From: a virus
Taxonomy: Duplodnaviria; Heunggongvirae; Uroviricota; Caudoviricetes
Virus record (IMG/VR): IMGVR_UViG_3300037455_000372
Coordinates: 291,393 to 355,392 of that record
Direction: 5' to 3' (one strand)
DNA length: 64,000 nucleotides
The notes below the pieces were generated by a model. The model did no database searches, was not told the DNA's origin, and saw nothing but the letters and a program-made list of their open reading frames with translations. Position numbers and translations under genes: made by a program. Below, one piece after another: positions 44,261-63,980 of the stretch; the first letter of the stretch is position 1; every line of letters starts with the position of its first letter.

Positions 44261-46105
44261 TCACTTTCTACTAGAAAGGGGGTGGGCGTTTAATCGGCCA
44301 CTTTGTTTTGGCATATCCTTTACCAGTTCATCGTATATGCCTCTTTTCTTTGCCGTATATGATTCGGTTCTGAATTTCTTGTTAAACTCGGTCCTACTTT
44401 TGCATTGACGGATACAGTCCTTGATGCGGTCTACCGTGATATCATCCGCCTTGGTATAACTACGCGGTAACCGTTCCAACAAGTCGTCCCAGTGGTTCCG
44501 ATGTGCAGTCCCGTATTCTGAAGGATATTCTTTCAGGAATTGGGCATAGGTACCGCACTTGCTTATAGCCTGTTCTACATCGGAACGAGTCACTTCGCTT
44601 CGCCTTTTATGCTCTAAAGTAGCCGAGACGGCTTTATATAACCCATATCGCTTTATTTGGGAATAGAGATTCTTGTCTGCACGGAGTTCTGCAAGGGTCG
44701 TATATTTGCGTTCTACAGTTTCAAGCAGCTCGGTTCGCTTGGCCGCCTTCTTACGTTGCTTGGTTTCAGCTTTCTCAACAGATTTCTGGCGGTCCCTCTC
44801 GGCTCGCCTCAGCGCAGAAATTTCCTCAACTGGCTTCAATAATCCCTTCCCCAGTCTAGTTAGACGGTTCGTGGTTATACCTAGCCTAGACGCGGCAGAA
44901 CGTTTAGTCAGTGTACCTTCGTTCACTAAGGCGATGACTTCGTCAAACCCATCCGGTAGTTCCGGCTTTACCGAACGGTCTAACCGGTTCAGCATATGGC
45001 ACAACCCACGGCGCGACATATATTTGTATTCCTTTGGATATGACGTCTTAAATTCTATAAATGTGGTACATTTTCTTATTATGCTGGCTAAATAGTCTAT
45101 CGAATATTTAACCGTGCTTGAGAATTTTGGTAACCGTGACCACACTTGCTCATATAGATTACGCTGCGATACGATGGTATACAACCTCTTACCGTGTTTA
45201 CGCAAATCGCTGTATGTACTGAACCTAGAAAATATCTCGTTCAATATTTCCTCGTCACTCCGGGTGTCAACTCGCCGTTCGCCTACATATCCACCAATAC
45301 TCCCACCGGGATGACGGTTTATGACCGTATATCCGGCGTTTCTGTGCTCTTCTATGCATTTACGCTCGTATTCGGCGGCCTCGTGGCTGTATAGACCAGT
45401 TTTCAGCTTCTCTATCTTGAACGTGCAGCCAGTATCGTCAAGATACCGCTTAACAGGACTGGTGTCACGTTTCTTATATTCCTCAGATATTCGACGCTTG
45501 TAATTGCTTGTTAAACCGATGTAGACAGCTCCGGTCTCTATAAATGTCCACTTGTAGATACACCATATAGGTTGTTCATCTTCTCTTCTTGGATAATAAG
45601 GCAACCCAGATAGCAGATCGTCCCAACCCCTTTTATGCAGCTTTGCATATGCACTTCGATATTGGTTACGGAACTCAAACTGGCTTTTACACCTAGAGAT
45701 AAGATCTCGTAAATAGTCCTTGGTATATACTGGACGAGAGGCCGGATGTATATAACCTGGCTGATGGGTTGGCAGTAAGTCCAGTAGGTCTTTCCACCCG
45801 TTACGCTTCATAGCGTCATAGGCACAACAATGGTTGCGCCGGAAGTCCTTGCCGCTGGTACAGGTCTTTATTACAGCTTCGATACGTTCCTTCGTCCAAG
45901 GTTGGGGATTCTGCTTACTTGTTCCTATAAATGGCTGAATCGCGGGAATGTTCTGGTACGTAGGTAGTACCGACTTCAAATCATCCCAATGGTTGCGCTT
46001 CATTATCTCGAACGCACCACTATAGCGTCGTCTAAAGTCTTTTACGCTTGTACAAGTCTTCAGTACATTGGTTATGGTTTCTCGTGTCCATTTCGAGCTT
46101 TTCAT
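44261..46105 (-). CDS. Free-standing GIY-YIG homing-endonuclease-like protein with tandem helical repeats
   Basis: WCIYKW..AVYIGLTSN..RR..E, E..CI...IN; ~8 repeats of T.E.I...I..C.(S/T)..(D/E)F...Y..AY....R..W.DL...LP; AT-richer codon use than neighbours. Confidence 0.8.
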   Translation of the reverse strand: MKSSKWTRETITNVLKTCTSVKDFRRRYSGAFEIMKRNHWDDLKSVLPTYQNIPAIQPFIGTSKQNPQPWTKERIEAVIKTCTSGKDFRRNHCCAYDAMKRNGWKDLLDLLPTHQPGYIHPASRPVYTKDYLRDLISRCKSQFEFRNQYRSAYAKLHKRGWDDLLSGLPYYPRREDEQPIWCIYKWTFIETGAVYIGLTSNYKRRISEEYKKRDTSPVKRYLDDTGCTFKIEKLKTGLYSHEAAEYERKCIEEHRNAGYTVINRHPGGSIGGYVGERRVDTRSDEEILNEIFSRFSTYSDLRKHGKRLYTIVSQRNLYEQVWSRLPKFSSTVKYSIDYLASIIRKCTTFIEFKTSYPKEYKYMSRRGLCHMLNRLDRSVKPELPDGFDEVIALVNEGTLTKRSAASRLGITTNRLTRLGKGLLKPVEEISALRRAERDRQKSVEKAETKQRKKAAKRTELLETVERKYTTLAELRADKNLYSQIKRYGLYKAVSATLEHKRRSEVTRSDVEQAISKCGTYAQFLKEYPSEYGTAHRNHWDDLLERLPRSYTKADDITVDRIKDCIRQCKSRTEFNKKFRTESYTAKKRGIYDELVKDMPKQSGRLNAHPLSSRK

Positions 46106-46130: not shown

Positions 46131-46780
46131 GCCCCCCCCCCCAAAAAAAATTTTTTCAGACGGCCACATCGTGGTTTGTTTTTAACGGCGGTGGGGTCTG
46201 TATTAAACTAGTTTAAAATACCCATACCCCCCCTATATAGTACGCGTTTTTCCATACCCAAAAGTTTATACTTATAAAAACTATTTTTTCGTGACAATGT
46301 TTTTTCTTTAATTTTTCGCGGCATATCCTGTACACCACAGCTGGAACCAGTCCGCCAACCAGTCCCCTCGGTGGGAACCGGCTGGCAACCAGTCCGAACT
46401 GGTCGGACCCGGTCTCAACTGGCTGGGAAATGGTGGGAACCAGTTGGCCACCGGCATGAACTGGTCTGCCACAGGCCGCGAGCGTAAACCACAAGCAGAA
46501 ACTACTGCTCAAACGTGCCTTACGGCGAAATTAGCCCAGACTAACTTAGCCCTGGCTAACTGATGGGGGTGGATAGGTATGGGGTCAAGGGTCAGCCGTG
46601 GGGGGTATGGGTCAGCGGTCGCCACCACGAGCCACGCAGTCCCACGATGGGGGAGCGGTGGGCAGATGTAACACCCTAGCACGAAAGAGCCTAGAGAACC
46701 CCCTTACGGCGAAAATGGCTCGCAGAAAGTCTGCACCTACTGACTGGACCGGTCCGGGCTTCCCCCTACGGCGAATCTCT
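46131..46780. repeat. Non-coding junction with homopolymers, short AACCAGTCC/AACTGG repeats, TACGGCGAA x3 and G-runs
   Basis: C-run/A-run/T-run at ~46132-46156; nested AACC(A/G)G / AACTGG units 46340-46470; TACGGCGAA at 46521, 46705, 46767. Confidence 0.7.
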
Positions 46781-46924
46781 CGTATGTCGAAAGGCGGTTG
46801 CCCAAGACCAATGAGCCTAGAGGCGGTTACCCCACTGCCTAGGTTCAAATGGGTTTCCCCTAACCGACTATCCAAATGATGTAAGGCAATGGAGCCTTAC
46901 GAAAGCTCAAAAGGAGTTAAGCTT

Positions 46925-47701
46925 ATGATGTTCAAGGTCAATGAAGACGCTATCGTGAAAAACACCTTCGCTCGTATGGAATACAGCGGTGACTATACGA
47001 CCTATATGGTCAAAAAGGCTCGCGACTTGTCCAAGTTCCCCCAAGTGTGTGCCAAGATGGACGAAATGGGTCTGAACATTCCGACCGTTGGCGCACCGAA
47101 CCCCTACCGCTCGGTCATCAAGGAACAGACCTATCCGATTCAGCTCGGCGGTTCTCTCTCTTACACCAAGATGCAAGAGAAGAAGCTCGACCGCAACGGC
47201 TTCGAGGGTGCTACCTACGAACCGAAGTATCGCAAGCCTCACAAGTTCCCCCTCTACAAGGAACTGATTTACCTCGGTATGGATATGCAGACCATTTACT
47301 TCACGGCCTATCCGACCCAAGACGGCAAGGAAAAGCCCAAGGCAAAATGGATTGTTGACGGCCACCCCACTTCAAAATATGTTTTGTTGCCGTGGGCAAA
47401 GTCCGATGACTTCAAGCTTTGGACTGAAGGTCTCGTAACAAAGTCTGTTTTCAAGGACGGCGACGGCAACGCTATCCTTGACAAGGACGGCGAAGAAATT
47501 TCTTTGCGTGAGTTCATTGAAGTCAAGTTTGAAAACTGCAAGATTTTGGTGAACGGCACGGACATCAAGGAAAAATTCTTCTACGATGACAAGTTCTACA
47601 CCGATGAAGAATTGGTCGCTATGCGTGACGCTTACATTGAAAAGACCGAAAAGGAATTTGAACGTAAGCACCGCGAATGGGAACTTTCCCAAAAGGGTTA
47701 A
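46925..47701 (+). CDS. Hypothetical protein (first cassette gene)
   Basis: GGAGTTAAGC RBS; terminator hairpin at 47705-47727. Confidence 0.75.
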   Translation: MMFKVNEDAIVKNTFARMEYSGDYTTYMVKKARDLSKFPQVCAKMDEMGLNIPTVGAPNPYRSVIKEQTYPIQLGGSLSYTKMQEKKLDRNGFEGATYEPKYRKPHKFPLYKELIYLGMDMQTIYFTAYPTQDGKEKPKAKWIVDGHPTSKYVLLPWAKSDDFKLWTEGLVTKSVFKDGDGNAILDKDGEEISLREFIEVKFENCKILVNGTDIKEKFFYDDKFYTDEELVAMRDAYIEKTEKEFERKHREWELSQKG

Positions 47702-48106
47702 TCAAGGGGGGTAAAACCCCCTTTTTCCGTTTTATTTAATTTTTGAGCCTAAAACCTATGGTTTTGGGCTTTTTGTTTTTTGGTTTTATTTATCCGCTAA
47801 AGGTTAATTTTTAAGGCTCTAAAATGCGTTTTTGGTGCCGTTTTTTCGTGTTGGGGGTATATCCGCACCGATTTATAATTTTAAAGGCTATGGACGACAC
47901 AAATAGAGCCGTTTTTATTGTTTTCGTGTATTGTGGAGCCGTTTAAATGGTTCTATGGGCAAATATACGGATATAAATTTTAGACGCTCAGACGGCCTGG
48001 ATTTTTATATCCGGGGCTTCCGGACTGACTGGATCGGTCCGGGTCTCCCCTCGTTGCGTATGCCTAGGGTGTAAGCAATGGTGCTTACGAGCAAGGAGTT
48101 AAGCAA

Positions 48107-48367
48107 ATGTCCAAGTGTATCAAAATGAACTCGGAATATATCCGCAAGTTGGCTATTAAGCAGTGGGAAAAAGAAGGCCGTCAAGGTGCATTTTTACGCA
48201 CCTATGTAGACCCAAACGGCAAAATCTACTTTGACACAATGACAAACCGCTTTGAGCTTGTCGGCTGGGTTATCGCCAAAGTAAAGGGTATTTGGAAGCT
48301 CTTGACGAGCGAAGAGAAGGAAAAGGCCGACCTTGCCAAGCTCTTTGCAGCTATGGGCAATGCATAA
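48107..48367 (+). CDS. Hypothetical protein
   Basis: Cassette element and RBS upstream. Confidence 0.7.
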   Translation: MSKCIKMNSEYIRKLAIKQWEKEGRQGAFLRTYVDPNGKIYFDTMTNRFELVGWVIAKVKGIWKLLTSEEKEKADLAKLFAAMGNA

Positions 48368-48513
48368 CCAAGGAACCGCCAAAGCCGCCTAAAGGCGGCT
48401 TTCCTAGGGGCAAGGGAGAGAAGCCACTGACTGCCACGGCACGGGCTTCCCCCAGCCTCCTATCACACCTATGTAAGCGATAAGGCTTACGAAAGAAAAC
48501 GGAGTTAAGCAAT

Positions 48514-49461
48514 ATGGCAAAAGAAAAGATTACGGCTGACCAAATCAACCAAAAGATTTACAAGGAACTGAGCGACAAGTTTATCGCCGCCTTGGAACAA
48601 GGTGAAATCCCTTGGAAAAAGCCTTGGATTTGTAGCGAAAGTGGCTACATCGGCTCGTCTGGAACTCCCTACAAGTTCCTCAACACTATCTTGTGCGCAA
48701 TGAACGGCCACGAACCAGGCGAGTTCGTGACGGCCAAGGAACTTGAAAAGCGTGGCGGTCACTTCATTCCGAAGGCCGATGGTTCCAAGCAAGAACCGAC
48801 CATCGTTGTCATTCGCAAGTACCCAGAGAAGTGGGTTGAAAAGAAGGACAAGGACGGCAATGTGGTCAAGGACAAGGACGGCAAGGTCATCAAGGAACGC
48901 AAGATTTGCAGCAACCGCTATTTCCTCAAGACTTTCAAGGTGTGGCGTGTGGGTACGCAAGTCGAATGTCCGACCAAGTACACCGAAAAATATGCGAAAA
49001 AGAATCACAATCCTATCGCAGAGGCCGAAAAAATTTCTCTTGACTACATCGCACGAGAAGGAATTAAATTTTCTCACGATATTCATAACCGCGCCTTCTA
49101 CCGACCGAGCGCAGACCTTGTGAATGTGCCTCCGATGGATACTTTTCAAACGCAAGCTGGTTATTACGGAACCTTGTTCCACGAACTGGCTCACTCAACT
49201 GGAGCGGAAAATCGCCTTAAACGAGATATAAAAAATGTTTTTGGCGACCACCTTTACTCCAAAGAAGAGCTTGTCGCTGAAATCACTTCGGCTTGCATTA
49301 TGCACGATAAGGGTTGGAACACGGCAGACACCGATAAAAATAATATCGCTTATCTGCAAAGTTGGGCAAAATCTTTGAAGAGTGACCCCCAACTTATTGA
49401 AAATGCGATGCACGAAGCTAAAAAGGCGGTGGAACTTATCTACCACGGCAAGAAAAAATAA
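48514..49461 (+). CDS. ardC: ArdC-family antirestriction ssDNA-binding protein with zincin-like domain
   Basis: LEQGEIPWKKPW, Y...N, AFYRPSAD.V.VP...F, YYGTLFHELAHSTG..RL.R, YSKEELVAE, AYLQSW. Confidence 0.9.
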   Translation: MAKEKITADQINQKIYKELSDKFIAALEQGEIPWKKPWICSESGYIGSSGTPYKFLNTILCAMNGHEPGEFVTAKELEKRGGHFIPKADGSKQEPTIVVIRKYPEKWVEKKDKDGNVVKDKDGKVIKERKICSNRYFLKTFKVWRVGTQVECPTKYTEKYAKKNHNPIAEAEKISLDYIAREGIKFSHDIHNRAFYRPSADLVNVPPMDTFQTQAGYYGTLFHELAHSTGAENRLKRDIKNVFGDHLYSKEELVAEITSACIMHDKGWNTADTDKNNIAYLQSWAKSLKSDPQLIENAMHEAKKAVELIYHGKKK

Positions 49462-49510
49462 AATTCAAAATTGGGGGGTGCATTGCACCCCCTTTCCCAA
49501 AGGGGGATTT

Positions 49511-49669
49511 ATGGTACTTACTTGGAAAATTATTGTTTGTCTTGTGGTGGCTTTCTTGGTCACGATTAAGGTTTTTAAAAGTGGTTCGGCGGTATCTGTT
49601 TTAATAGGTTTTTTGGGCGTGTTCGCCTTGACTACTATCGCCTTGAATTCTTTAATTTCTCAATTTTAG
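49511..49669 (+). CDS. Small two-TM protein (52 aa)
   Basis: AGGGGG RBS; entirely hydrophobic. Confidence 0.55.
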   Translation: MVLTWKIIVCLVVAFLVTIKVFKSGSAVSVLIGFLGVFALTTIALNSLISQF

Positions 49670-49673
49670 ATTT

Positions 49674-49815
49674 TTTGCTTAACTCCCTAGCGGTGGGAAA
49701 CGCTCCCACCGCTTTTAAGTTTGCTTAACTCCCTAGGGGGAGCAAGGTGCTCCCCCTTACTTGCCTTTGCTTAACTCCCAAGGGGTGCGGACGAGGTGTC
49801 TGCACCCCATTTTTC
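49674..49815 (+). repeat. Three-unit array: TTTGCTTAACTCCC + unique GC hairpin, 46-bp period (candidate ncRNA)
   Basis: Repeat starts at 49674, 49720, 49766; stems AGCGGTGGGA/TCCCACCGCT, AGGGGGAGCA/TGCTCCCCCT, GGGGTGCGGAC/GTCTGCACCCC. Confidence 0.85.
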
Positions 49816-49917
49816 TGATCGGTCCGGGGATAGGACTGACTGTACGAGGCCGGGCTTCCCCTCGACGGTGATTACTCGTATGTAAGAAACAACTGCTCAA
49901 CCAAAGGAGTTAAGACA

Positions 49918-50058
49918 ATGGCAGATGTAATCGAAACCCTCATTCCGTGTGAAGCCATCGAAATCGATGAAAAGACCTACTTCGCCGCCCAGCGCAATGG
50001 GGCAACCCCCCTCGAAGCGGCCAAGCTCGCCACCATCAAGACGGAGGATAACCGCTAA
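49918..50058 (+). CDS. Small 46-aa hypothetical protein
   Basis: Cassette element and RBS; MADVIETLIPC.. Confidence 0.65.
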   Translation: MADVIETLIPCEAIEIDEKTYFAAQRNGATPLEAAKLATIKTEDNR

Positions 50059-50393
50059 TGAAACCCATCAAGACCGCACTCATAGCGGTGGCCGTGGCCA
50101 CCGCTTCCCTCTTCGCCCAAGACCTCCCCATTTGCGAGGAGTTCCACGGCGAGGCAAATATCCACTGCTTCCGCACCGAGGATAGAGCCATCGTCATTAG
50201 CCGTCACTCCGATGGTGGAATGACCTTCGAACTCTACACCAAGAACGGCAAGGCGTATGTGGAAACGGACGGCGAGGGGGGTATCTTCGCCAACACATCT
50301 AACACCCAAATCAACCTTTACGAGGTTGACGAGGACAAAGAAGAAACTTTACAGCAAGTCATCGCCTATGTGGCGGACGAAATCAAGTGGTAA
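50058..50393 (+). CDS. Secreted hypothetical protein
   Basis: Signal peptide MKPIKTALIAVAVATASLFA. Confidence 0.7.
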   Translation: MKPIKTALIAVAVATASLFAQDLPICEEFHGEANIHCFRTEDRAIVISRHSDGGMTFELYTKNGKAYVETDGEGGIFANTSNTQINLYEVDEDKEETLQQVIAYVADEIKW

Positions 50394-50416
50394 TTTTTAA
50401 CCAAAGGAGCAACCAA

Positions 50417-50710
50417 ATGAAAAAATTTATCTTTATCGCCATCGCTTGCGTGTGCCTCACCGCTTGCGGAGAAAAGACCGCAGAAGCCGCCAAGAATGTA
50501 GGCAAGGCCACCGCCGACCTCGCCACCACCGCAGCCTCTGAAGCCGCAGAAGCGACCAAGGACGCCGCCACGGAAGCCGCCGCCAAGATTAAGGACGAGG
50601 CAAGCAAGGCAGCGGACAAGGCAGCCACCGCCGCCAAGGACAAGGCAGCCGAGGCAGCCGCAGCAGCCTCCAAGAAGCTCCACGAGGCCGCCGACAGCCT
50701 CCGCAAGTAG
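50417..50710 (+). CDS. Ala/Lys/Glu-rich lipoprotein
   Basis: MKKFIFIAIACVCLTA-C lipobox; helical AK/EA repeats. Confidence 0.75.
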   Translation: MKKFIFIAIACVCLTACGEKTAEAAKNVGKATADLATTAASEAAEATKDAATEAAAKIKDEASKAADKAATAAKDKAAEAAAAASKKLHEAADSLRK

Positions 50711-50839
50711 TAAGCACCAACCCCAAGCCGCCGAACTCCGAGGCGGCATTTTGGGGCGGTTCCCGGATAGGGGACTGACCAGATCCGTCCGGGCGTCCCC
50801 CGGTCGGCTATCCCACCTATACAAGCAAAGGAGTTAGCT

Positions 50840-51070
50840 ATGTCAAACCGAGTAACGCAGAAGTACCTCCGCTCTTTGGAGCGAGATGGGTTAGCCACCA
50901 ACATCAACCAATGGGACGAAGCCCAGCTGAACGAAATCCGCCACAAGGGTGTAGCCACCGTGAGCGTGTCCGTGGGCGTGAACGGCTTGAACGGTGCCGA
51001 ACTCCAAGACGACGACGGCAAACGCTATGTAATCGTCGGACGGAACACGACCCTAGCGAGAATGGTCTAG
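50840..51070 (+). CDS. Hypothetical protein
   Basis: Cassette element upstream. Confidence 0.7.
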   Translation: MSNRVTQKYLRSLERDGLATNINQWDEAQLNEIRHKGVATVSVSVGVNGLNGAELQDDDGKRYVIVGRNTTLARMV

Positions 51071-51148
51071 GGACTGGCTGGGACTGGCTGGGTTTCCCCA
51101 AGCCTCCCATCACCTCTATACAAGAAACGACCTCAAAGGAGTTAAGCT

Positions 51149-51604
51149 ATGGGTTTTACAGCAAACGAAATCAAGGATTGGGCGCACAACGCCGTCAGTA
51201 TGATACCGCACGTAGAATGGTTCCACGGTTGGGAACTTACCTACCGCACGAACGCACTTAGCCTCGTCAAGGAAGATGTAGTCATCGTCTTGAGCGAGTC
51301 GATAATGAAGTTCTGCCGAGTGACCAGCTCGACCAAGCCGAGCGAAGCTCGTCGCCGTATCGAAGAGCATATGACCATCGGCTTCGACGGCTCGGATATG
51401 CTCATCAACATCGACGGCGGTGAGGGTAGCGGCCTCCACACCTACACGGTTCCGCTCCGCTGCTGGGTCGATAAAGAGGACGAGGCAAGGGTGGCGAGCC
51501 AGCTCAAGTTCGACCTCAAATACAAGGTCGAAGCATACCACCCCAACCAAGGCGCAGAACACCTCCGAGAGTTCGGCAAGTTCGACAAGAAATGGCCGAG
51601 GTAG
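51149..51604 (+). CDS. Hypothetical protein
   Basis: Cassette element upstream. Confidence 0.7.
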   Translation: MGFTANEIKDWAHNAVSMIPHVEWFHGWELTYRTNALSLVKEDVVIVLSESIMKFCRVTSSTKPSEARRRIEEHMTIGFDGSDMLINIDGGEGSGLHTYTVPLRCWVDKEDEARVASQLKFDLKYKVEAYHPNQGAEHLREFGKFDKKWPR

Positions 51605-51658
51605 GACGGGTTTCCCCCTCCGTCCTATTCACTCTATACAAGAAAAGGAGTTAAGACG

Positions 51659-52051
51659 ATGAAAAAAATTATTACGCCTCGTGAACCGATGCCCATAAAG
51701 ATTTTGAACTGGTGCATCAAGAATGGAGTCTGCGATGTCTGCACCTACGACAACGGCAAGGAATCCCTCGACCGTCGCTGGGAGGTCGAATTCCGCACCG
51801 ACAAGGTTATCAGCCTCGACGGTTTGGACTTCTGCAAGTGCTTTACGGATGGCCGTGAGGTCGTCGATAGCCTCACAAAGCAGCTTGGGGCGACGACGGT
51901 CATCGGTATGACTGCCGAGGGAGCCTTGAACTATGCGCTCCACTATGGGACGGATTACAAGCTCCGTGACCGTTTCACCAAGTTCCTCGACCGTTACGGC
52001 TACAAGTGGCACTGCATCAGCAACTGCTATTACCTCGTCTACAAGGTCTAG
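51659..52051 (+). CDS. Hypothetical protein
   Basis: Cassette element upstream. Confidence 0.7.
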   Translation: MKKIITPREPMPIKILNWCIKNGVCDVCTYDNGKESLDRRWEVEFRTDKVISLDGLDFCKCFTDGREVVDSLTKQLGATTVIGMTAEGALNYALHYGTDYKLRDRFTKFLDRYGYKWHCISNCYYLVYKV

Positions 52052-52130
52052 GAACTGGCTGGGACTGGCTGGGTTTCCCCCAGCCTCCCATCGCCTCTAT
52101 ACAAGAACTGAACAACAAAGGAGTTAAGCT

Positions 52131-52553
52131 ATGATGACCGTTTCCGAAGCCTACGAATGGGTATTGAACCATACGAAACCAGCGCACGAATGTTTTCAGC
52201 GTGGCGTCCGTGAATATATGATTGAAATGCTGAAAAAGCTCAAGGATGGCGACCACGAGGAAGTCAACGGCGAAACGCCTATCAATAAATTGACGTTGGC
52301 GCACCTTACGCACCACTGCGACGGCTCGAACATTTTGATAACCGAACGCAGCAAGGAAGCAAAGGAAATAGTCCGCCGTGCTTGCTATGGTGCTATGTTC
52401 CTAGTATCAAACGAGGATATAGCAAACCGCCTTTTCACGAAGGCCGAGAAGGCGAACGCTCGGATGTACGAAAACGCTATGGAAAGCCAGGTGGAGGCCG
52501 TTTGGGCGGCCATTGGCTTGCTCTCCGAACTGCGCTTAGTGTTGCGCTCCTAA
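52131..52553 (+). CDS. Hypothetical protein
   Basis: Cassette element upstream; anti-RBS motif downstream. Confidence 0.7.
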   Translation: MMTVSEAYEWVLNHTKPAHECFQRGVREYMIEMLKKLKDGDHEEVNGETPINKLTLAHLTHHCDGSNILITERSKEAKEIVRRACYGAMFLVSNEDIANRLFTKAEKANARMYENAMESQVEAVWAAIGLLSELRLVLRS

Positions 52554-52682
52554 GATTTGCTTAACTCCCAACCCCCTTCAAAGGGGGTGTTTCTTGGGGG
52601 AAGTCCGGTCCGGGACTGACCGGATCTGGCCGGGCTTCCCCTTCTTGCCTATCGTACCTATATCAGAAAGGAGTTAAGCGAT

Positions 52683-53219
52683 ATGTCAAACACAACCGAA
52701 ACACAGAGACTTTACTACGGCTTCAGCAAGACCGAGCTTGCCTATCCGTCTAGGATTGACCGAGACAACTGGGACAACTATGTCATAACCATCAGCAACG
52801 GCACGGAGCTGCGTGAACACTGCCGAGCCATCGCCGAGGCCGAGCACGCCAACGCCGACTGTATCGAGCACGCTCTTGGCGAGCTGTTCAGCTGGCTGGG
52901 CGACGGCGACCACGAAGAGGTAGGCACGGTCGAAGAGGAAGGCTGGTACGAGCCGCCTCGCTACAACTACGCCGACCCAGCAGCCGCTTGCGATGCCGAA
53001 GGGGGTATCACCTCGGCGGTGGTCAATCTGACCTACCCAACGGCGGACACGGCTGGCGGCGCATACCACATCATCGACGAGGTCATCGGCTTTATGCTCG
53101 ACGACGAGGTGATTGACAGCGAAGAGGAGATAGCTCTGCGCACTTGTCAAAAATTCATTTCTCGCTGGGTGGCCGAGAAAGTCCACGAATTTGACCGCCA
53201 AGACGTTCACGAGGATTAG
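52683..53219 (+). CDS. Acidic hypothetical protein
   Basis: Cassette element upstream; D/E-rich. Confidence 0.7.
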   Translation: MSNTTETQRLYYGFSKTELAYPSRIDRDNWDNYVITISNGTELREHCRAIAEAEHANADCIEHALGELFSWLGDGDHEEVGTVEEEGWYEPPRYNYADPAAACDAEGGITSAVVNLTYPTADTAGGAYHIIDEVIGFMLDDEVIDSEEEIALRTCQKFISRWVAEKVHEFDRQDVHED

Positions 53220-53309
53220 TTTTTCTTAACTCCCAAACCGGGGGACTGGCTCGAACTCCGTCGGGCCTCCCCCAAGCTTTTATTTTTCTTATATCGAAAA
53301 GGAGACCTT

Positions 53310-53723
53310 ATGGCTTTGTTAGCATACCACTTCAGAACACCGGACTACGACGACCCCAATATCGACAATATGCCCCAAGCGACGACAGCGTCCAACGAGA
53401 AGAATGCGTGGGACATCGTTCGACAGAAGGCACGAGATTTTATTCAAAATGTGATTCACGACACTCCGTCGAACATCGACGAACTCGACGACCGAATCGT
53501 TAAAGGCGGCTGCCACGACGAGAACGGCACGACGGTTAAGTACACCCACACGGCCAAGCTCGACGGACAGTTCGAATACAGCATCGAAGGCTGGTCGGTC
53601 GGTAACTTGGTGTGGCTCACGGTCGATATCCATCCGTTGGCACGTCGTTCGGCTCTCACCTTGAGAAGCGACGACGAACCGCTCTGCGGCCTCGCCATCT
53701 TCGAAGCTCGAATCTACGCATAA
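53310..53723 (+). CDS. Hypothetical protein
   Basis: Cassette element upstream. Confidence 0.7.
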   Translation: MALLAYHFRTPDYDDPNIDNMPQATTASNEKNAWDIVRQKARDFIQNVIHDTPSNIDELDDRIVKGGCHDENGTTVKYTHTAKLDGQFEYSIEGWSVGNLVWLTVDIHPLARRSALTLRSDDEPLCGLAIFEARIYA

Positions 53724-53803
53724 CAAAGGAACCACTATGGCAAAAAACACCATCCGCATCGTCAAACCGTCCAAGAAGCGCATCTGCGGCTAAAGGAGCA
53801 TCT

Positions 53804-53938
53804 ATGTTCATCCAGTTTGGTAGAACCAAGTTTTTACGTACTGCTGGCTTTATTAGCGGCTTGCCCCTAGTTAAGCCCATCGTCACCGCCTCGCACAACA
53901 ACGCCGATCTCTACGGTCGGTTCAAGAAGCGGAAATGA
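53804..53938 (+). CDS. Small basic 44-aa protein (preceded by an 18-aa ORF at 53737-53793)
   Basis: AAGGAG RBS; both mini-ORFs have RBSs. Confidence 0.5.
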   Translation: MFIQFGRTKFLRTAGFISGLPLVKPIVTASHNNADLYGRFKKRK

Positions 53939-53998
53939 CTGGACCGGTCCGGGCTTCCCCGGACTGGCTATCGTTCCTATACAAGCAAAGGAGTTAAT

Positions 53999-54322
53999 AT
54001 GGAAATGATAGACGCCATTGATACGATTGAAGCTGCAAAGGCTGACTTTGAGAAACGCACTAGCAACTTGGTTAACGGTCTCAGCACATACGGATTTGTC
54101 AAGGTCTCGTATGCGTGTCAAGGGGTTGACTTTAGGATTAGCGCAAAGCTCGACAAGCACGATGTTGAGCTGTTCGCTTGCCACCGCAAGGACGGCAACA
54201 AGAACATAGCTCTAGGGGTATCTTACAAGGACGGAGACGAATGGGAATCGCGCTATTCGGACGATGACACTTGGCACGGCTTGGCCTTGGTTCTAGTGAG
54301 CTTAAAGCGAGAGCTTTCCTAG
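53999..54322 (+). CDS. Hypothetical protein
   Basis: Cassette element upstream. Confidence 0.7.
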   Translation: MEMIDAIDTIEAAKADFEKRTSNLVNGLSTYGFVKVSYACQGVDFRISAKLDKHDVELFACHRKDGNKNIALGVSYKDGDEWESRYSDDDTWHGLALVLVSLKRELS

Positions 54323-54405
54323 TGCAATGACCAGATCGGTCCGGGCTTCCCCGGACTGCCTATCGTTCCTATACAAGGAACGAAACAACAACAAGGAGTT
54401 AAGAT

Positions 54406-55473
54406 ATGTTGAGTTCAGACTTTATCGCATTTCACGAGCGTTGCAAGCGTAAGTTCGGAGACATCTTCCGCCAAGGCGCACGAGTCAAGCCGTTTCCCCA
54501 CGATGTGTATGGTTGGAAGGCGGTGGCCATTGACCGAGAAGGGAACGTGATGGTCTTCAGCGGAGACCACGGCTCTAGCAATCCTGAAGGCATTGTCGGA
54601 GTCCTAAACGGCAAGGTATACAAGACCCACCACTCCAATGGCCGCTTTCAGAGCGGAGTCCGCACCATTAGCGAATCTCGCGACACCTACCCCGAAATCT
54701 GCGGCTTCAGCAGTCCTACGGAAATGGCCGAAGTGAATTGCATCAACCTTAGTCAGTGCGAAATGGCTATGGAAATGCTCTCCGCATTGGTTCCCGAACA
54801 AGTAGCCAAGAACGAAGCCGAAGACAAGGCGGTTACGGAACTGCGTGAATTTTGCAAGAGCATTTTCAATGTGCGTGGGTTCTTGTCCGACTTGAAACGC
54901 AAGCACAAAAATTTGATTGATTGGTTTGCAAGGCTTGAAAACAAGGAAAATTCCACTTGGAACTCTAGCACGCCTTTGTGGTGCGGTTCTTATAGGGGTT
55001 GGCACTCCAATGTGGAAAATGTTTATTTTTGTGGCAACAAAGTTACGCAAGGCTACAAATTTATTTGCAGTGCGAACAAGGCGGAAGGCACGGAAGTCAC
55101 CGAAAAGACTTTCTACAAGAAACTTCTGCCGAGCTTGGCCGAGAGAGCCGAGACCTTGAAAGACTTGGACAAGTGGCACACCTTTATTCAATTCTGTATG
55201 TGCCGTTATGGTGATTTCTCTATCACACGCGAGCCGAGCGGAGCGGTTCACTACTATATCAAGGGTTATAGTGACACCGCTATCCCCAAGGACTACCATT
55301 TCAGCGGAGCCGCTTGGAGAGACGGCCTTCGCAAGGCGACCGAGACCGAAGAAAAGACCATTACCAAGTGGGTCAAGGTCTGCGGTAACTGCAAGCTTGA
55401 CACGGCTATGGTGAATTGGTCTAAAAGGGTGTGGAGAGAACCCACCGAAGACGAACTGAACGCACTCCCTTAA
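54406..55473 (+). CDS. Hypothetical protein (355 aa)
   Basis: Cassette element upstream. Confidence 0.7.
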   Translation: MLSSDFIAFHERCKRKFGDIFRQGARVKPFPHDVYGWKAVAIDREGNVMVFSGDHGSSNPEGIVGVLNGKVYKTHHSNGRFQSGVRTISESRDTYPEICGFSSPTEMAEVNCINLSQCEMAMEMLSALVPEQVAKNEAEDKAVTELREFCKSIFNVRGFLSDLKRKHKNLIDWFARLENKENSTWNSSTPLWCGSYRGWHSNVENVYFCGNKVTQGYKFICSANKAEGTEVTEKTFYKKLLPSLAERAETLKDLDKWHTFIQFCMCRYGDFSITREPSGAVHYYIKGYSDTAIPKDYHFSGAAWRDGLRKATETEEKTITKWVKVCGNCKLDTAMVNWSKRVWREPTEDELNALP

Positions 55474-55622
55474 CTCCGCTAGGGGTGGTTCCCAAACCGA
55501 TGGGAGCCACCCTTTTTGGGGGTGGGAATCCGCTCAGGACTTACTGGACCGGACCGGGTTTCCCCCTACCGAGTATCTACCCTATACAAGAAACGAATCA
55601 CCCATCACAAAGGAGTTAAGAT

Positions 55623-56279
55623 ATGGGAATGGTAAAGCTTACTAAGGCTAACGAGAAGACGCTCGCCAAGCGTCAGAATATGGTCGCCAAGGCAGCCGAA
55701 AAGGCGGCAGCAAAGGCAGCCAAGGCAGCAGCAAAGGCGGCTCCCAAGGCCGAACCGCTCAAGGAACCGACAGTGGCCGAACTCAAGGTGTTCGCCGACT
55801 TGCTCAAGAGCGGCAAGAAAGCCTATCTGTTCGCCACCCCCAAGGTCACGCTCGAAGGCACCAAGCTCGGCTTGGCTTGGGCGAACGGCACCGCAATGGA
55901 GAATCCGATTGAAGCTCTGTGGAGTGTCAAGGCCATCGTCACCAAGTCGCCCACGGTTGAAACGGCTCCGACCGACGGCTACTACATCAAGACCAAGACT
56001 TGCGACGATGGTTCCGTGGTTGTGCATTTCTTCAAGGCACCCGGAAAAACTTCCTTCTGCCATTCCACCCACAATACCACTATGGTGGACAAGGTGAAAT
56101 GGATTAACGAAGGCAAGCCGTGTGGCTACCGCTACGGATTTGCTTTCAAGGGAGCTAGTTCCCACCGAATCACCACGGGCGAGGCCAAGGAAAGAATTTT
56201 GAACCACAAGTATGACGAATGCGATGTGGAAGGTGGTGTGCTGATGTTCCAAGAATATTCCGCAGCCGATATGGAATAA
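55623..56279 (+). CDS. Hypothetical protein with AK-rich N-terminus
   Basis: Cassette element upstream; KAAEKAAAKAAK tract. Confidence 0.7.
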   Translation: MGMVKLTKANEKTLAKRQNMVAKAAEKAAAKAAKAAAKAAPKAEPLKEPTVAELKVFADLLKSGKKAYLFATPKVTLEGTKLGLAWANGTAMENPIEALWSVKAIVTKSPTVETAPTDGYYIKTKTCDDGSVVVHFFKAPGKTSFCHSTHNTTMVDKVKWINEGKPCGYRYGFAFKGASSHRITTGEAKERILNHKYDECDVEGGVLMFQEYSAADME

Positions 56280-56338
56280 ATTTTCTTAACTCCAAGTGGG
56301 GGAGTGGCGACACTCCCCCTTTTTTAAAGGATTTTACT

Positions 56339-56626
56339 ATGGCATTGAATGACGACCAAGACGAAAACATTACCTATTTGTCAACAAATAAATTTAAAAT
56401 TGTTCAGCGAATCCAAGAACTAAAGGATACTCGCGACAAGTTGGTTTCTTTGTTCGGCAAAGACCCCTACCACAGCATTATTTTTAACCACCTTACGGAC
56501 ACCATAAACGCCTTGTTTGGGCAAGTCCAACTAATCAACACCCAAATAGATAGGGTAAGGGTAAAAGGCGGCTTAAAACCGCTCTATGACCAGTACGCCG
56601 AGCTTTACGGCAAGCAGACTGGCTAA
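56339..56626 (+). CDS. Hypothetical protein
   Basis: AAGGA RBS; start MALNDD. Confidence 0.55.
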   Translation: MALNDDQDENITYLSTNKFKIVQRIQELKDTRDKLVSLFGKDPYHSIIFNHLTDTINALFGQVQLINTQIDRVRVKGGLKPLYDQYAELYGKQTG

Positions 56627-56685
56627 GATCGACCGGGCGTCCCCCGCCCGGTTATTCTTTTTATACAAGAAACAAAGGAGTTAAT

Positions 56686-57018
56686 ATGGTAAAGGTTATC
56701 AAAAACACGGCAGACAAGACTAAAAAGCTTCTCAAGGCCGAAGTCAACAAAATCGTAAAGCAGTTCAATAGCCGCCTCGTGTTCAATAAGCAAGGCTGGG
56801 TAGGCAAGACGCCAGCTGGGTTCGCCGACAAGTGGGTGGAACTGTATGCGTCAGACTACAATGACGAAGCTCTCAAGGAAGCCATCGACCAGATTAAGAA
56901 AGCTGGCTACTATGTGTGGAAAATCTACGGTTGCTATGGCCGTAACTCTGCGCTCGACACGGTCTACCGTATCACCGAGAGCCGTCTGAAACCGACTCCC
57001 GGATGCACTCTGGTGTAG
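56686..57018 (+). CDS. Hypothetical protein
   Basis: Cassette element upstream. Confidence 0.7.
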   Translation: MVKVIKNTADKTKKLLKAEVNKIVKQFNSRLVFNKQGWVGKTPAGFADKWVELYASDYNDEALKEAIDQIKKAGYYVWKIYGCYGRNSALDTVYRITESRLKPTPGCTLV

Positions 57019-57107
57019 CCTAACTGGCTGGGACTGGCCGGGTTTCCCCGGTCCGGCTATCTCTCCTATACAAGAAACAACCAACCACTCAAAAGGAGTT
57101 AAGACCT

Positions 57108-57524
57108 ATGGCACAGAAACTGCTCACCAAATCCATCATCGAAGCTATCGCAAAGACCCCCTACGGTTCTGAAGACGGCGTCGACCGCGACAACAAGAAG
57201 GTAATCGCTCGCTTCTTCGGCGGTGCGGCCTTTGTCTGCTATGTCCTCGAAGACGACAGCTTCTTCAAGGAATACAAGACCGACGAAAAGACCGGCAAGA
57301 CGGTTCCGACCAGTATCGAGGAATCGAACATCGAAGAGAATATGATAGTCTTCTGCGCCCAGTCGATTGGCCACGGCCTCGAACTCGGCGGCGTCTCCCT
57401 CAAGGAAGTGTTCGAACTCCGCTTCCGTCCGTTCGGCCTCGGAGTTGAACGCGACAGCAGCGTGGAACCGTTCAAGTACACCCTTGGCGAACTTCGCAAA
57501 AGACAAGGCGAGGAATGGATGTAG
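57108..57524 (+). CDS. DUF2958-like protein
   Basis: LLTK..., VIARFF, ELGGVSLKE, GLGVERD pattern. Confidence 0.65.
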   Translation: MAQKLLTKSIIEAIAKTPYGSEDGVDRDNKKVIARFFGGAAFVCYVLEDDSFFKEYKTDEKTGKTVPTSIEESNIEENMIVFCAQSIGHGLELGGVSLKEVFELRFRPFGLGVERDSSVEPFKYTLGELRKRQGEEWM

Positions 57525-57590
57525 CCCCATCCTCGCTGGGGGAGGCGGTAGGGGTGCCGACCTCCCCATTTTTCTTTAAAGGAGCTTTTT

Positions 57591-57878
57591 ATGGCACAGA
57601 TGAAACTTGTCACACAGTTCAAACAAATGTTTTCTCGTTTCTGCAACGACGGTAAGCAAGCCGTGTTTGGGTATTGGCAGTGCTGCCGTGGTGGTTACGA
57701 CAAGTGGTTTGAAATTTATTTCAGTCGTCACAATATCGGAGCCGTGTGCGACTGCGTGAACGGTGAATGTAATTGGTTCGGTAACATCAAGGAAATCGGA
57801 ATCACCGAATCCGAGCTAGAGGAAATCAAGAAATTCATTACCGATCATTACCCTCACACCAAGTTCGTCGAGGAATGA
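57591..57878 (+). CDS. Hypothetical protein
   Basis: AAGGAG RBS. Confidence 0.65.
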   Translation: MAQMKLVTQFKQMFSRFCNDGKQAVFGYWQCCRGGYDKWFEIYFSRHNIGAVCDCVNGECNWFGNIKEIGITESELEEIKKFITDHYPHTKFVEE

Positions 57879-57947
57879 CCGGGACGGTCCGGGTCTCCCC
57901 GGACTGGATATCGCTCCTATACAAGAAACAACCAATAGGAGACAGAT

Positions 57948-58355
57948 ATGAAATTCGTAGTATTAACCTCGAACGACACTCGCGACTCGCTTTCCGAGAA
58001 CACGCTTTTTGGCACTCGTCTCTATTCTGACGAGAACGGCAAAGACCCAGTAGAATCGGCGTCCGCTACGATTTGGGAGCGTATGCAAAGCGACCTTGAA
58101 GCGTATAACATCTACAAAGTCGAATTGAACGGCGAAACCGTATTCCAAAAGGAAGATGGCGAAATGGGCTGGGGTAGTGTGGATAAAGAAACCCCAGACC
58201 AGCTTAAACTCCGCACACACGACGAAATCAAGGCGGCGTATGGCTGTCTGAAGACCGCTTCCGTGGTCGTCCGTGGCTCTGACGACATCTTCTGCGGTAT
58301 CTTCCACAAGGCACAAGAACGCAAGCCGAACGACGACACCGCCGAAGTCGTCTAA
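57948..58355 (+). CDS. Hypothetical protein
   Basis: Cassette element upstream. Confidence 0.7.
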   Translation: MKFVVLTSNDTRDSLSENTLFGTRLYSDENGKDPVESASATIWERMQSDLEAYNIYKVELNGETVFQKEDGEMGWGSVDKETPDQLKLRTHDEIKAAYGCLKTASVVVRGSDDIFCGIFHKAQERKPNDDTAEVV

Positions 58356-58427
58356 CGGAACTGGCCGGACCGGTCCGGGCGTCCCCAGACCGGTTATTTC
58401 CTCTATACAAGAAACAAAGGAGCTAAT

Positions 58428-58964
58428 ATGAAATACTTCCAAATTGAAAGCGCAAAAGAACTGGAACCCATCGAAAAGACTCTCGACCGTCACGACACCG
58501 GCGACGAGGAATGGATTTTCGTGAGCAAGAAGACGACGGAAATCGAACTGGACGGCGGCAAGAAGTGCAAGGTCAAGCTTGGCGTGTGGGTCAAGGATGT
58601 CCAAGCGTGTTCTCCCTCGGTTGACACAAAGGACGGCGACTTCAAGGTCTTCCTCTTCCTCGTTCCTGATGTGAAGACGCTGGGCAAGAAGACAAAGGCG
58701 TGCGTCGCAGCGACGAGCGGAATCAAGCCGAGCGAGGTTGACGAATACGACTGCTGGCAGTACGGTCTGGAAGTCTCTTGCGGTCGTGACGAGAAGCTGG
58801 AGAACATCACTGGCCTCAACGACCCCAAGCTCCAAGAAGTCATCAAGTTCGCTGGCGATGTGGCTGCCTCTTCTATCCTCGGCCTTATCGGTTTCACCCT
58901 TGACCAGCCGATTAACAAAGTTGGCGATAACGGCTGGAACCGAGCTTCTGAATGGGTAAAATAA
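58428..58964 (+). CDS. Hypothetical protein
   Basis: Cassette element upstream. Confidence 0.7.
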   Translation: MKYFQIESAKELEPIEKTLDRHDTGDEEWIFVSKKTTEIELDGGKKCKVKLGVWVKDVQACSPSVDTKDGDFKVFLFLVPDVKTLGKKTKACVAATSGIKPSEVDEYDCWQYGLEVSCGRDEKLENITGLNDPKLQEVIKFAGDVAASSILGLIGFTLDQPINKVGDNGWNRASEWVK

Positions 58965-58985
58965 TTTTCAACAAAGGAGATTTCT

Positions 58986-59126
58986 ATGGCGTGGGCGTTT
59001 CCGTTGACAAAGGCTCAAATCCGCAAGAAGTTCGGCTGTACGCTTGACGAATTGCAGAAACGAGCCGATATAAGGGTGGTGGACAGCATCGACCCTAAGA
59101 AAAAGATAGTGGTCGTGCTTCCGTAG
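58986..59126 (+). CDS. Small 46-aa protein
   Basis: AAGGAG RBS; MAWAFPLTK.. Confidence 0.55.
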   Translation: MAWAFPLTKAQIRKKFGCTLDELQKRADIRVVDSIDPKKKIVVVLP

Positions 59127-59197
59127 CGACTGGCTTGGAATAACCGGGTGTCCCCAGCCCGGTTATTTTTTCTATACAAGAAACAAAGGAGTTAAGA

Positions 59198-59506
59198 ATG
59201 GCTAAGAAAGATTGGTCGAATGTCTACGCAGTTAGACAAGAATACAACAAGTTCCAAAAGAAGTGGTTCCCCATTATCCTCGTTTGGAGTAAGAACGACC
59301 GCACGGCGTGGATTGAAGCTCTCTGCACGGAAACCGGAAGCTCGTTCTACTATACCGAAATCAAGGACGACTACACCAAGGTCACACGCAAGGGAACCGA
59401 CAAGTGCGACCCCGAAGATGTGAAGCGAATCAGTGACTTCTTCGAACACGACTACACTTCCGAAGAAATGCACGAAGTTCAGAAGCTCGGACAATACAGA
59501 CCGTAA
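59198..59506 (+). CDS. Hypothetical protein
   Basis: Cassette element upstream. Confidence 0.7.
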   Translation: MAKKDWSNVYAVRQEYNKFQKKWFPIILVWSKNDRTAWIEALCTETGSSFYYTEIKDDYTKVTRKGTDKCDPEDVKRISDFFEHDYTSEEMHEVQKLGQYRP

Positions 59507-59516
59507 GGAGGCTACA

Positions 59517-59771
59517 ATGGACATTAGCAAGCTCACCGACGAGGAAATCAAGGCGCATCGCGAGAATTACGAACGGTCGACAATGACCGCGCTCGAACTA
59601 TATGAGGCGTTGGGCGAACTTATCAAGAACGGCGACGGCGACGCTATGATTGATGTGGACGACAACTGCGGAGGCTCGTATCCCTTGGCTAAATTTACTG
59701 TTCCGAACGGTACGCCGCCTCTGAAAGCGACCGTGGGCAAGATGGGGAAGTGGATTACGCTGGGGTTCTGA
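59517..59771 (+). CDS. Hypothetical protein
   Basis: AAGGAGG RBS; start MDISKL. Confidence 0.65.
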   Translation: MDISKLTDEEIKAHRENYERSTMTALELYEALGELIKNGDGDAMIDVDDNCGGSYPLAKFTVPNGTPPLKATVGKMGKWITLGF

Positions 59772-59844
59772 CCATCGACGACCGGGTTTCCCCGACCCGG
59801 TTATTTCTTCTATACAAGAAACAACCAGTCAAAAGGAGTTTAAA

Positions 59845-60261
59845 ATGAATATCGACTTTCAGAAATTCTGTTCCCTCTGCGAAACGTCCTTGTTGGACAT
59901 TCTGAGCGGGTTCGGCAGCAATCCGGGCGTACTGCGCTATGATTACAGCGAGGAAGACTACAAGAACGCCAAGGCAGCTCTCATAATCCAGCACGACAAC
60001 GAGGGTAAGCCGTACGAAATCACCTACGAGGAAGTGCTTGAAAGCATCGTGTACCGTGGCGGAAAGCTGACCTTCTACGATGTCGAGGACGAAAAGGAAA
60101 CGCCGTACGCGCTCGATCTGGCCGCCTTGGAACGTGGCGTCGATGGGTTCATCGAGAACGCAAAGGAATCGTTCGCCGACTATCTGAACGGCAACGGCGA
60201 CTCCATCGCGGACAATGTGTTCATCCAGTGCTGTCTGTTCGGAAAGCCGGTTTACGCCTAG
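59845..60261 (+). CDS. Acidic hypothetical protein
   Basis: Cassette element upstream; C-terminal D..AD...Q..LFG..VY motif. Confidence 0.7.
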   Translation: MNIDFQKFCSLCETSLLDILSGFGSNPGVLRYDYSEEDYKNAKAALIIQHDNEGKPYEITYEEVLESIVYRGGKLTFYDVEDEKETPYALDLAALERGVDGFIENAKESFADYLNGNGDSIADNVFIQCCLFGKPVYA

Positions 60262-60331
60262 CCGAATGTTCGCCGGTCTCCGGGCGTCCCCGGCCGGCGT
60301 ATTCTTTTTATGTCAAACAAAGGAGTTAAAG

Positions 60332-60769
60332 ATGGCACAGTTTAAGAAACCCGAATATGTCAACCTCACCTACAAGATGGCCGCTCGATACCTCGTGAGC
60401 AACTATATAGAAGGCATCCGCACGCCGCGCACCCCTCTGAAGGTAATCGCTTATCCTGAAGCAAAAACGACGGTCACACCTTCCGACGGCTGCCCGAATC
60501 CGACGCACTGGAGTTTCCTCGTACACAATCTGCTCGATGTAGAAACGATATCGGCGTGTTGCGAGGAACGGAACAGTGGTGGCGGTGTCATCCTCGAATC
60601 CAAGGCCGTCGTCAATGTCATTAACGAGATGAACAAGAATAGCAGCTACACCGACGCCTCCGCGCTGTTCATCGAACGAATTGCCAAGGGTCACGGCTTC
60701 AACACCGACGGTCTGTGGTGCCGTGCCACGCCTCGTCTCAAGCAGTTCCTCTCCTACTCTGAAGGTTAG
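60332..60769 (+). CDS. Hypothetical protein
   Basis: Cassette element upstream; start MAQFKK. Confidence 0.7.
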   Translation: MAQFKKPEYVNLTYKMAARYLVSNYIEGIRTPRTPLKVIAYPEAKTTVTPSDGCPNPTHWSFLVHNLLDVETISACCEERNSGGGVILESKAVVNVINEMNKNSSYTDASALFIERIAKGHGFNTDGLWCRATPRLKQFLSYSEG

Positions 60770-60838
60770 GGACTGTATGACCGGTTCCGGGTTTCCCTAG
60801 CCGGTCTATCTTTTTTGTACCAACCAAAGGAGTTAAAA

Positions 60839-61234
60839 ATGAATTTTGAAATTGGAATTTCCGCCGGTACAGAAGCATTCACCGTGGCCAAGTTCAGCCA
60901 TTATGCGCCCAAGGACTACGGTACGCCCCAAGACACGCTGGACAAGCCGTTGCTGCGACCCGACCAAAAGGCCGCCGAGAAGGCACTGTACGAATCCGCC
61001 GAGGCGTATCTGACGCAATACGACGCCGTCCGAAAGCTCAAAGGCAAGTCCGACACTAAGGGCATTAGTTCCGACAAGGTGTGGGAAATACGAATCGACG
61101 GCGACGACCGAGAAGACGAAATCAAGACGCTCGACGACCTCAAGGACGCGCTTGTAGGCCATTCCCACTTGATTATCGTGCTGCAAGGCGTTGGCTGGGC
61201 TGAATGGAGGCTCGACAAGGTGACTTGTGGCTAG
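60839..61234 (+). CDS. Hypothetical protein
   Basis: Cassette element upstream; C-terminal WAEW like the next gene. Confidence 0.7.
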   Translation: MNFEIGISAGTEAFTVAKFSHYAPKDYGTPQDTLDKPLLRPDQKAAEKALYESAEAYLTQYDAVRKLKGKSDTKGISSDKVWEIRIDGDDREDEIKTLDDLKDALVGHSHLIIVLQGVGWAEWRLDKVTCG

Positions 61235-61307
61235 GGAACTGGCTTAGGCCGGTCGGGCGTCCCCAGACCGGCTATTTCTTCTATACAAACCAACAAGGAG
61301 TTGCAAA

Positions 61308-61700: not shown

Positions 61701-61760
61701 CCAGAACCAGCCGGGCGTCCCCCAGACGCCCATTCTTTCTATACCAACCAAGGAGACTAT

Positions 61761-62270: not shown

Positions 62271-62347
62271 CTCCCTTGGCCGGTCCGGGTTTCCCCAGAC
62301 CGGCTATTTCCTCTATACAAGAAACAACCAACCACAAGGAGTTAAAA

Positions 62348-63911: not shown

Positions 63912-63980
63912 ACCGGTCTGGGTTTCCCCCAGCCGGTTATCTTCCCTATACAAGAAAGAAACCAACCACAAGGAGTTAAA

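Follow-up and report, generated by a model that had tools for sequence, protein, structure and literature searches.

Three copies of a U-rich 14-nt seed, each followed by a GC hairpin, lie at 49674..49815 of the DNA analyzed here (the window, 64,000 nt of a virus record), and this array is a dispersed 3'-end element in tripled form. We judge it to be a real, conserved RNA module that, from comparative sequence analysis, is probably functional. We lean towards the reading that the array is a tripled 3'-end module on the tail of a predicted early ardC transcript and would damp translation of cassette genes by pairing with their ribosome-binding sites (RBSs). The anatomy and + orientation of the array, the dispersal and conservation of its module, the covariation of its hairpins and the complementarity of its seeds are established directly.

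Early-gene switch-off in T4-like phages is only partly understood, and its known post-transcriptional part is a protein nuclease. If the reading is true, a self-encoded anti-RBS tail would provide an RNA route to class-wide early shut-off, and it would also explain the uniform spacer of the early RBSs.

The phage and its early cassette region

The window belongs to a linear virus record of 355,392 nt that is 93% complete. A T4-type capsid protein, portal, gp32, family B polymerase and sigma factor were found among 160 scanned proteins (at least 230 aa), and the matches to Gp23, portal and gp32 gave the T4-like assignment. The sequencing runs containing the region are mostly from bovine gut, and the record represents a giant, uncultured rumen phage. 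We propose with moderate confidence that its host is Fibrobacter, based on a Fib_succ_major match below the curated cut-off and on homologs named TIGR02145. The phage also encodes an IF3 homolog, a TnpB-like protein, a P-type cation ATPase, Thg1, a poly(A)-polymerase/CCA-type enzyme and a GIY-YIG endonuclease (listed at L047:17644-18360 (+), L046:15845-17002 (-) and window 3667-6315, 33313-34341, 35335-36621 and 44261-46105). A search of the phage for Hfq gave no match; those for RegA and RegB were blank, as were their controls.

From 46.7 kb to the contig end, the window is occupied by small genes, each behind a repeated promoter module. A PWM built from 21 cassette sites gave 37 matches (27 distinct), all on the + strand at 46755-63919. 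Apart from the promoter at 48426..48480, the + strand gave no match from 48442 to 49851, and the minus strand gave none; within the array units there was no promoter, the best score being -4.8 bits. Because no promoter intervenes, we take the array to be the predicted 3' tail of the transcript of ardC and a 52-aa peptide gene, and not a separate gene. Transcription of all three, ardC, the membrane-peptide gene and the array, would start from the promoter at 48426..48480. The original prediction had offered, as a second role, a decoy for an RBS-binding factor. This would need the minus strand, where no cassette-type promoter lies near the array and where, by inspection, no start codon follows the Shine-Dalgarno (SD) sequence, and we rejected it.

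Contigs from RNA libraries, which lack strand and ends and may be DNA, join ardC to the peptide gene (49206-49595) and cross units 1 and 2 (49459-49780). The peptide has six homologs and no match in Pfam or PHROG. A type I toxin-antitoxin pair of array and peptide was dropped, as the array seeds bind the peptide's RBS at only -9.3 to -9.8. Two hairpins lie at 49473-49511 between ardC and the peptide gene, the second of which hides the peptide's G-rich SD; a similar C-rich/G-rich stretch is found in L027, a distant relative described below.

Some further properties of the promoter module were noted. Its 27-nt spacing was invariant in 21/21 training sites (window 46739-63960). The upstream box, which reads ACTGAC/ACTGGC in the window and ACTCCC in L027, stands 21 nt before the -35-like hexamer in both (window 46739-63960; L027 6264-18570), and many copies of the module form a hairpin over the -35 box.

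Table 1. Positions in the window of the array, its predicted transcript, single modules and candidate target sites
Feature	Position	Strand	Details
RBS of first cassette gene	46913..46922	+	10-nt seed complement, equal to 51138, 52120, 52670
Top predicted target RBS	48095..48107	+	13-nt seed complement; -19.7 kcal/mol; rank 1/408
Early promoter module (predicted)	48426..48480	+	PWM 48.7 bits; upstream box, -35-like TTCCCC, 17 nt, -10-like hexamer
ardC RBS	48501..48512	+	12-nt seed complement; predicted target on own mRNA; same RBS in L027
ardC, ArdC-family anti-restriction, 315 aa	48514..49461	+	Pfam ArdcN, MPTase-PolyVal; phrog_7245; L027 protein 51% identical
52-aa hydrophobic peptide gene	49511..49669	+	Directly before array; L027 ortholog 35% identical, before its array
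Unit 1	49674..49713	+	U-rich anti-RBS seed 49674-49687, then 10-bp hairpin 49689-49713
Unit 2	49720..49757	+	Seed 49720-49733, then 10-bp hairpin 49735-49757; weak U-tail
Unit 3	49766..49814	+	Seed 49766-49779, 11-bp hairpin 49782-49808, T5 tail
Next cassette promoter module and RBS (49906-49914)	49835..49920	+	PWM 40.6 bits
Single module	52556..52588	+	After stop at 52553; seed 14/14 and hairpin
Single module	53221..53273	+	After stop at 53219; seed 13/14; hairpin overlaps next promoter-like stretch
Single module	55469..55514	+	9-nt core overlaps stop codon of 355-aa gene; orthologous L027 module 15711
Single module	56281..56319	+	After stop at 56279; seed 12/14, hairpin and T6; orthologous L027 module 16546

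Anatomy of the array

Exact copies of the 14-mer TTTGCTTAACTCCC begin at 49674, 49720 and 49766 (spacing 46/46), and each is followed by one hairpin of 10-11 GC-rich base pairs that differs from the other two, exactly as originally described. A fourth exact copy is found at 52556. The arrangement exceeds chance: with up to two mismatches allowed, the window holds 8 matches to the 14-mer versus 0.46 expected, and 0/100 shuffles reached 8. The 171-nt array folds with z = -4.84 (0/200 shuffles as good), and the seeds are 55-73% unpaired when the array is folded in isolation. Unit 3 is likely the operon terminator. A hairpin within a 111-aa ORF (50084-50105) has the same outer 8-bp arms as array hairpin 1, which is probably chance.

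The alternation of a constant repeat with variable units had invited comparison with CRISPR and type III antitoxin arrays. CRISPR arrays have repeats of more than 20 nt and spacers taken from foreign DNA that differ between strains; here the repeat has 14 nt, and the spacers are perfect, conserved hairpins with no match longer than 12 nt elsewhere in the genome. In type III antitoxins, pseudoknot repeats that are almost identical separate a promoter from the gene of a toxin RNase. The array units are unlike one another, a variable gene with a promoter of its own comes next, and no toxin family was found among 23 proteins. An Rfam search with the array gave no family at the gathering score, only two sub-threshold chance matches, and the arrays of the relatives L023 and L027 had no Rfam matches.

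Integron attC sites depend on an IntI-type tyrosine recombinase and complementary L boxes. GCTTAAC after stop codons and GTTAAGC before start codons would fit RYYYAAC/GTTRRRY, the inverse-core/core consensus. However, the 93%-complete record has 0 matches to PF00589 (the control matched 14/14), the inverse site is missing from most cassettes, and the inner (L) boxes are not complementary at the two sites inspected by eye. Integron-like sites, a mini-CRISPR array and a type III antitoxin mimic are thus extremely improbable, and we consider these readings largely excluded.

The module also ends single genes

One seed and hairpin also closely follow each of four further stop codons (modules at 52556, 53221, 55469 and 56281), and these single modules are confined to the early cassette region of this 355-kb T4-like jumbo phage. 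Seeds lie 0-14 nt from the stop codon. An 8-nt core of the seed occurs 11 times on the + strand of the 355,392-nt record, seven of them in the units, and its complement 21 times, with 19 at cassette gene starts. A strict filter, which missed two known units, found 90 terminator-like hairpins in the genome. Of the 10 in the cassette region, five are preceded by at least 9 nt of the RBS-consensus complement (background 0.03%), whereas none of the 80 elsewhere is preceded by even 7 nt or more. RNA-library contigs end near single units at 53233/53247, 55516 and 56294/56296; because these come from one study and are located at repeats, they were not used as evidence, and neither were the stretches without contig coverage, which carry no weight.

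The seed is complementary to cassette ribosome-binding sites

The seed is the complement of the SD sequence plus the spacer common to cassette genes. As claimed originally, its complement extends for 13, 12 and 10 nt before 48107, 48514 and 46925, respectively. We compared the unit-1 seed with 408 mechanically called ORF starts (28 cassette and 374 other; six minus-strand calls in the region were excluded). The top three of the 408 were all cassette genes: 48107 (-19.7 kcal/mol), ardC (-18.9, rank 2/408) and 52683 (-18.5). Duplexes of -14 or better were formed with 9/28 cassette starts versus 5/374 others. A generic 16S tail gave only -6 to -8.5 on ten of these starts. Being conserved, mostly unpaired in the isolated array and RBS-complementary far beyond chance, the constant part of the array remains its likely guide, as first suggested.

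The further idea of three upstream genes for three units did not hold up. The start at 46925 is not special, since equal 10-nt matches occur at the RBSs of 51138, 52120 and 52670, and L027 has three units yet no homolog of the 48107 gene. About 20 target RBSs stand against 7 seeds, and the 14th base of the seed, its last C, mismatches most of them.

The spacer after GGAG reads T, T, A, A in 23, 25, 23 and 22 of 28 sites in the window and in 11, 11, 10 and 9 of 12 sites in L027; both lineages have thus kept it constant, even though translation could do without it. Seeds and RBSs show no clean covariation, as L027 seeds keep GC after genes with GA in the RBS. The sole variant seed of L027 pairs best with the sole variant RBS of 21 (n=1), but the canonical seeds bind that RBS just as strongly (-12.5 vs -12.6), which makes the match only suggestive.

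The conserved non-SD spacer could instead be a recognition sequence for a protein, either on DNA in both orientations, as for a repressor at the RBS, or on RNA for a termination or processing factor, with complementarity as a by-product. The T4 nuclease RegB reads an extended SD motif in early mRNAs, according to excerpts of a T4 review (PMC3014915). Nevertheless, the orientation before hairpins is antisense in 13/13 units, the promoter-to-RBS distance varies, an RNA-binding factor would have no need of complementarity, and unit spacing, which varies from 45 to 52 bp, leaves no helical phasing. We therefore find a protein-binding site very unlikely.

The array is conserved in relatives

A two-seed pattern matched 10 metagenome contigs. 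One (L031) carried an unrelated repeat and was dropped; the other nine are relatives, and all have three units, one being cut by the contig end. Because the search demanded two seeds, relatives with 0-1 unit could not surface. Scans of IMG/VR by pattern, protein alignment or ArdC revealed no member of this array group: four pattern matches and one further match were unrelated, and 18 distant ArdC loci were without the motif. Neither GTDB contigs nor GenBank phages gave a match.

In L027, ArdC is 51%, the peptide 35% and other proteins 40-49% identical. Here too the peptide gene precedes three units, at spacings of 52 and 49 nt; their stems differ and two seeds are identical. L027 also carries single modules at three places, two of which lie behind orthologous genes. 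Across the two lineages, CTTAAC is invariant in 13/13 units and the core TCC is kept in 12/13. In hairpin 3, 4/11 pairs have changed on both sides in L027 and 100% of cells are paired (2/500 shuffles); all compensatory changes come from this one relative, and the alignment places hairpin 1 out of register. The array hairpins are under structural selection. A U-tract follows only the last hairpin of the L027 array, which fits one multi-unit RNA.

Spacings of 45/46, 46/47 and 52/49 in relatives show that the exact 46-bp period, while true of the window, does not extend beyond it. Given the L027 spacing and its missing 48107 homolog, we regard the exact period and the matching of three genes to three units as incidental, and the conserved feature is the seed-then-hairpin anatomy.

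Since the module is dispersed at 3' ends, the stacked 3' ends that had been named as one ground for refutation are plausible as the origin of the array. On a stronger version, recombination would have left the units behind as stacked terminators or as degraded ends of PeSL-type cassettes, with the seed a relic of the upstream promoter box or of an old inversion and with termination alone mattering. The same module ends single genes, the cassette slot just 3' of the array holds four different genes among 10 loci (nine relatives and the window), one L027 seed is without the SD-complementary core, and degraded PeSLs with intact stem-loops are described in accessible parts of the literature (PMC4122927). 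Moreover, L027 promoters start with ACTCCC, which is also part of the seed, so part of the seed may come from a DNA element. However, the seeds have stayed unchanged while adjoining stems and linkers turned over, the window lineage kept its seed after altering the promoter box to ACTGAC/ACTGGC, the TTTGCTTA half of the seed is missing from the promoter, and the inner L027 hairpins are without U-tracts. The stronger version is therefore quite improbable.

Folding and a candidate mechanism

We used equilibrium folding of RNA, without ribosomes and without a shuffled control. In such folds, the seed pairs with the RBS of its own mRNA at a predicted P of at least 0.8 in 4/7 window units, 4/6 L023 units and the 1/1 L027 unit tested. 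On read-through RNA, it pairs with the next matching RBS at a predicted P of at least 0.9 in 4/7 window units, and at 1.00, 0.98 and 0.45 in the three L027 units tested. Seed 3 has a possible cis partner in the RBS at 49906-49914 (predicted probability 1.00 on read-through RNA). Units 1 and 2 have P 0.00 for a downstream RBS, yet their seeds are perfect. In nascent RNA, the C-run of most of 12 units would pair with the G-rich 5' arm, as any C-run would do, and this was given no weight.

The module could accordingly act purely in cis, as a read-through insulator or coupling switch in which the seed hides the RBS of the next cassette on leaked RNA, leaving translation to RNA that starts at that cassette's own promoter; as a variant, a ribosome at the upstream stop codon could unmask the next RBS. 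Next to the pairing just described, this would fit the closeness of seeds to stop codons and the RNA-library contigs X21 (49701-50047) and X22 (49757-49889), which run across hairpin 3 into the next cassette and may be DNA. A precedent exists in T4 genes e, soc, 49 and I-TevI, again according to excerpts (PMC3014915). We nevertheless regard both forms as unlikely: units 1 and 2 are partnerless, the RBS of the gene just after 53221, 56281 and L027 16546 does not match (-3.4 to -6.2), and the best seed fits are upstream RBSs (48107 and ardC). That units 1 and 2 are conserved without a downstream partner speaks for each molecule having more than one target, and hence for a trans component, and the excess of three conserved seeds over the one RBS available in cis counts for a multi-target tail.

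In the damping model that we favor, transcription would run from the 48426 promoter through ardC, the peptide gene and the array. Hairpin 3 would terminate it, while hairpins 1-2 would be leaky, or purely structural and guard the transcript against decay from its 3' end. Duplexes of 9-13 nt (-13 to -20 kcal/mol) would form between the unpaired seeds and the SD, spacer and start region; one of the seeds could fold back on its own or the next RBS, leaving the others free to pair in trans with early mRNAs. Stable 3' fragments would accumulate, with cleavage possibly at U-rich linkers, and serve as an early-phase timer; processing is the least supported step of the model.

A bolder form, possible in our view but short of probable, is that in a lytic T4-like jumbo phage the early genes are barcoded with one extended RBS and carry its antisense seed in their own 3' ends, the tripled copy being processed to sRNAs that shut the regulon in trans. 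With the same reserve, the array might be an RNA-only counterpart of T4 RegB within swappable cassettes, such that any gene entering is put under the timer.

Comparison with known systems

We compared the array with the accessible parts of published descriptions. The CcsR1-4/Cuckoo RNAs of Alphaproteobacteria are, like the array, anti-SD modules repeated in tandem within the 3' UTR of a gene for a small protein, with one upstream promoter and a 3'-end terminator, as is predicted for the array; their processing by RNase E has been shown (PMC8034643). However, the Cuckoo motif CCUCCUCCC lies in hairpin loops, whereas the array has its seed, which reads UUUGCUUAACUCCC, in the single-stranded stretch 5' of the hairpin, and its loops vary. 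The Cuckoo ORF is DUF1127, whereas the array follows a 52-aa membrane peptide without a Pfam match (PMC8034643). Unlike Cuckoo, the array seed extends over the spacer of the RBS class that the phage itself uses and also occurs singly, and the array matches no Rfam model, which leaves it outside the Cuckoo family.

For icaR of Staphylococcus aureus, a C-rich 3'UTR motif has been described that blocks initiation by base-pairing to the SD on its own mRNA, with cleavage by RNase III shown (PMC3868564); for the seeds here, a fold-back on the own RBS is predicted in 4/7 window units. In icaR one gene has one motif in a long UTR, whereas the array repeats a module near the stop codon that fits a whole gene class (PMC3868564). 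LhrC of Listeria has three redundant sites per RNA (CUCCC-type) that block an SD, as the three array seeds would, and is Hfq-independent on lapB; it differs in being encoded by multicopy bacterial sRNA genes with UCCC motifs, host mRNA targets and sites mainly in loops (PMC4132741).

Among phage elements, the PeSLs of T4-like phages place a promoter, stem-loop and SD between swappable ORFans, as found around the array (PMC2839356, PMC4122927), and the surrounding cassettes correspond to them in their 27 distinct + sites, T4-like hallmarks and four alleles in one slot. Unlike PeSLs, the array units are without -35/-10 boxes. The accessible text of the PeSL descriptions contains no anti-RBS element (PMC2839356, PMC4122927). 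In T4 e, soc, 49 and I-TevI, an anti-SD upstream of the promoter masks the downstream RBS, as the array might, and RegB shuts off early mRNAs class-wide via the extended SD motif, as proposed for the array; these T4 elements are gene-specific local hairpins or a protein nuclease, unlike the array (PMC3014915). The same 2010 review states, in its accessible part, that no trans-acting small RNA has been characterized in T4 (PMC3014915), and that of a 2025 review of phage sRNAs contains nothing resembling the array. In the openly accessible literature, no such element appeared by title or abstract start among the matches listed. By analogy, the best reading is that the array would work in the manner of CcsR/Cuckoo, LhrC or the icaR 3'UTR, with the regulon of the phage itself as its target.

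Minor features of the cassette region

A leader hairpin of the form GTAAG...CTTAC is common to the first three cassette genes (46880-46901, 48071-48090 and 48473-48490) and missing from later cassettes; these genes possibly form a separate expression class. None of the RBSs listed from 59835 onward (59835-63972) has a G after GGAGTTAA, and several read GGAGTTAAA. No seed modules lie in this stretch, and the seed binds two RBSs tested there weakly (-7.8 and -10.5). Degenerate short direct repeats occupy the non-coding stretch before the first promoter (window 46340-46470), and a long T-rich spacer follows the first gene (window 47720-48020), which in L027 is repetitive (7240-7650).
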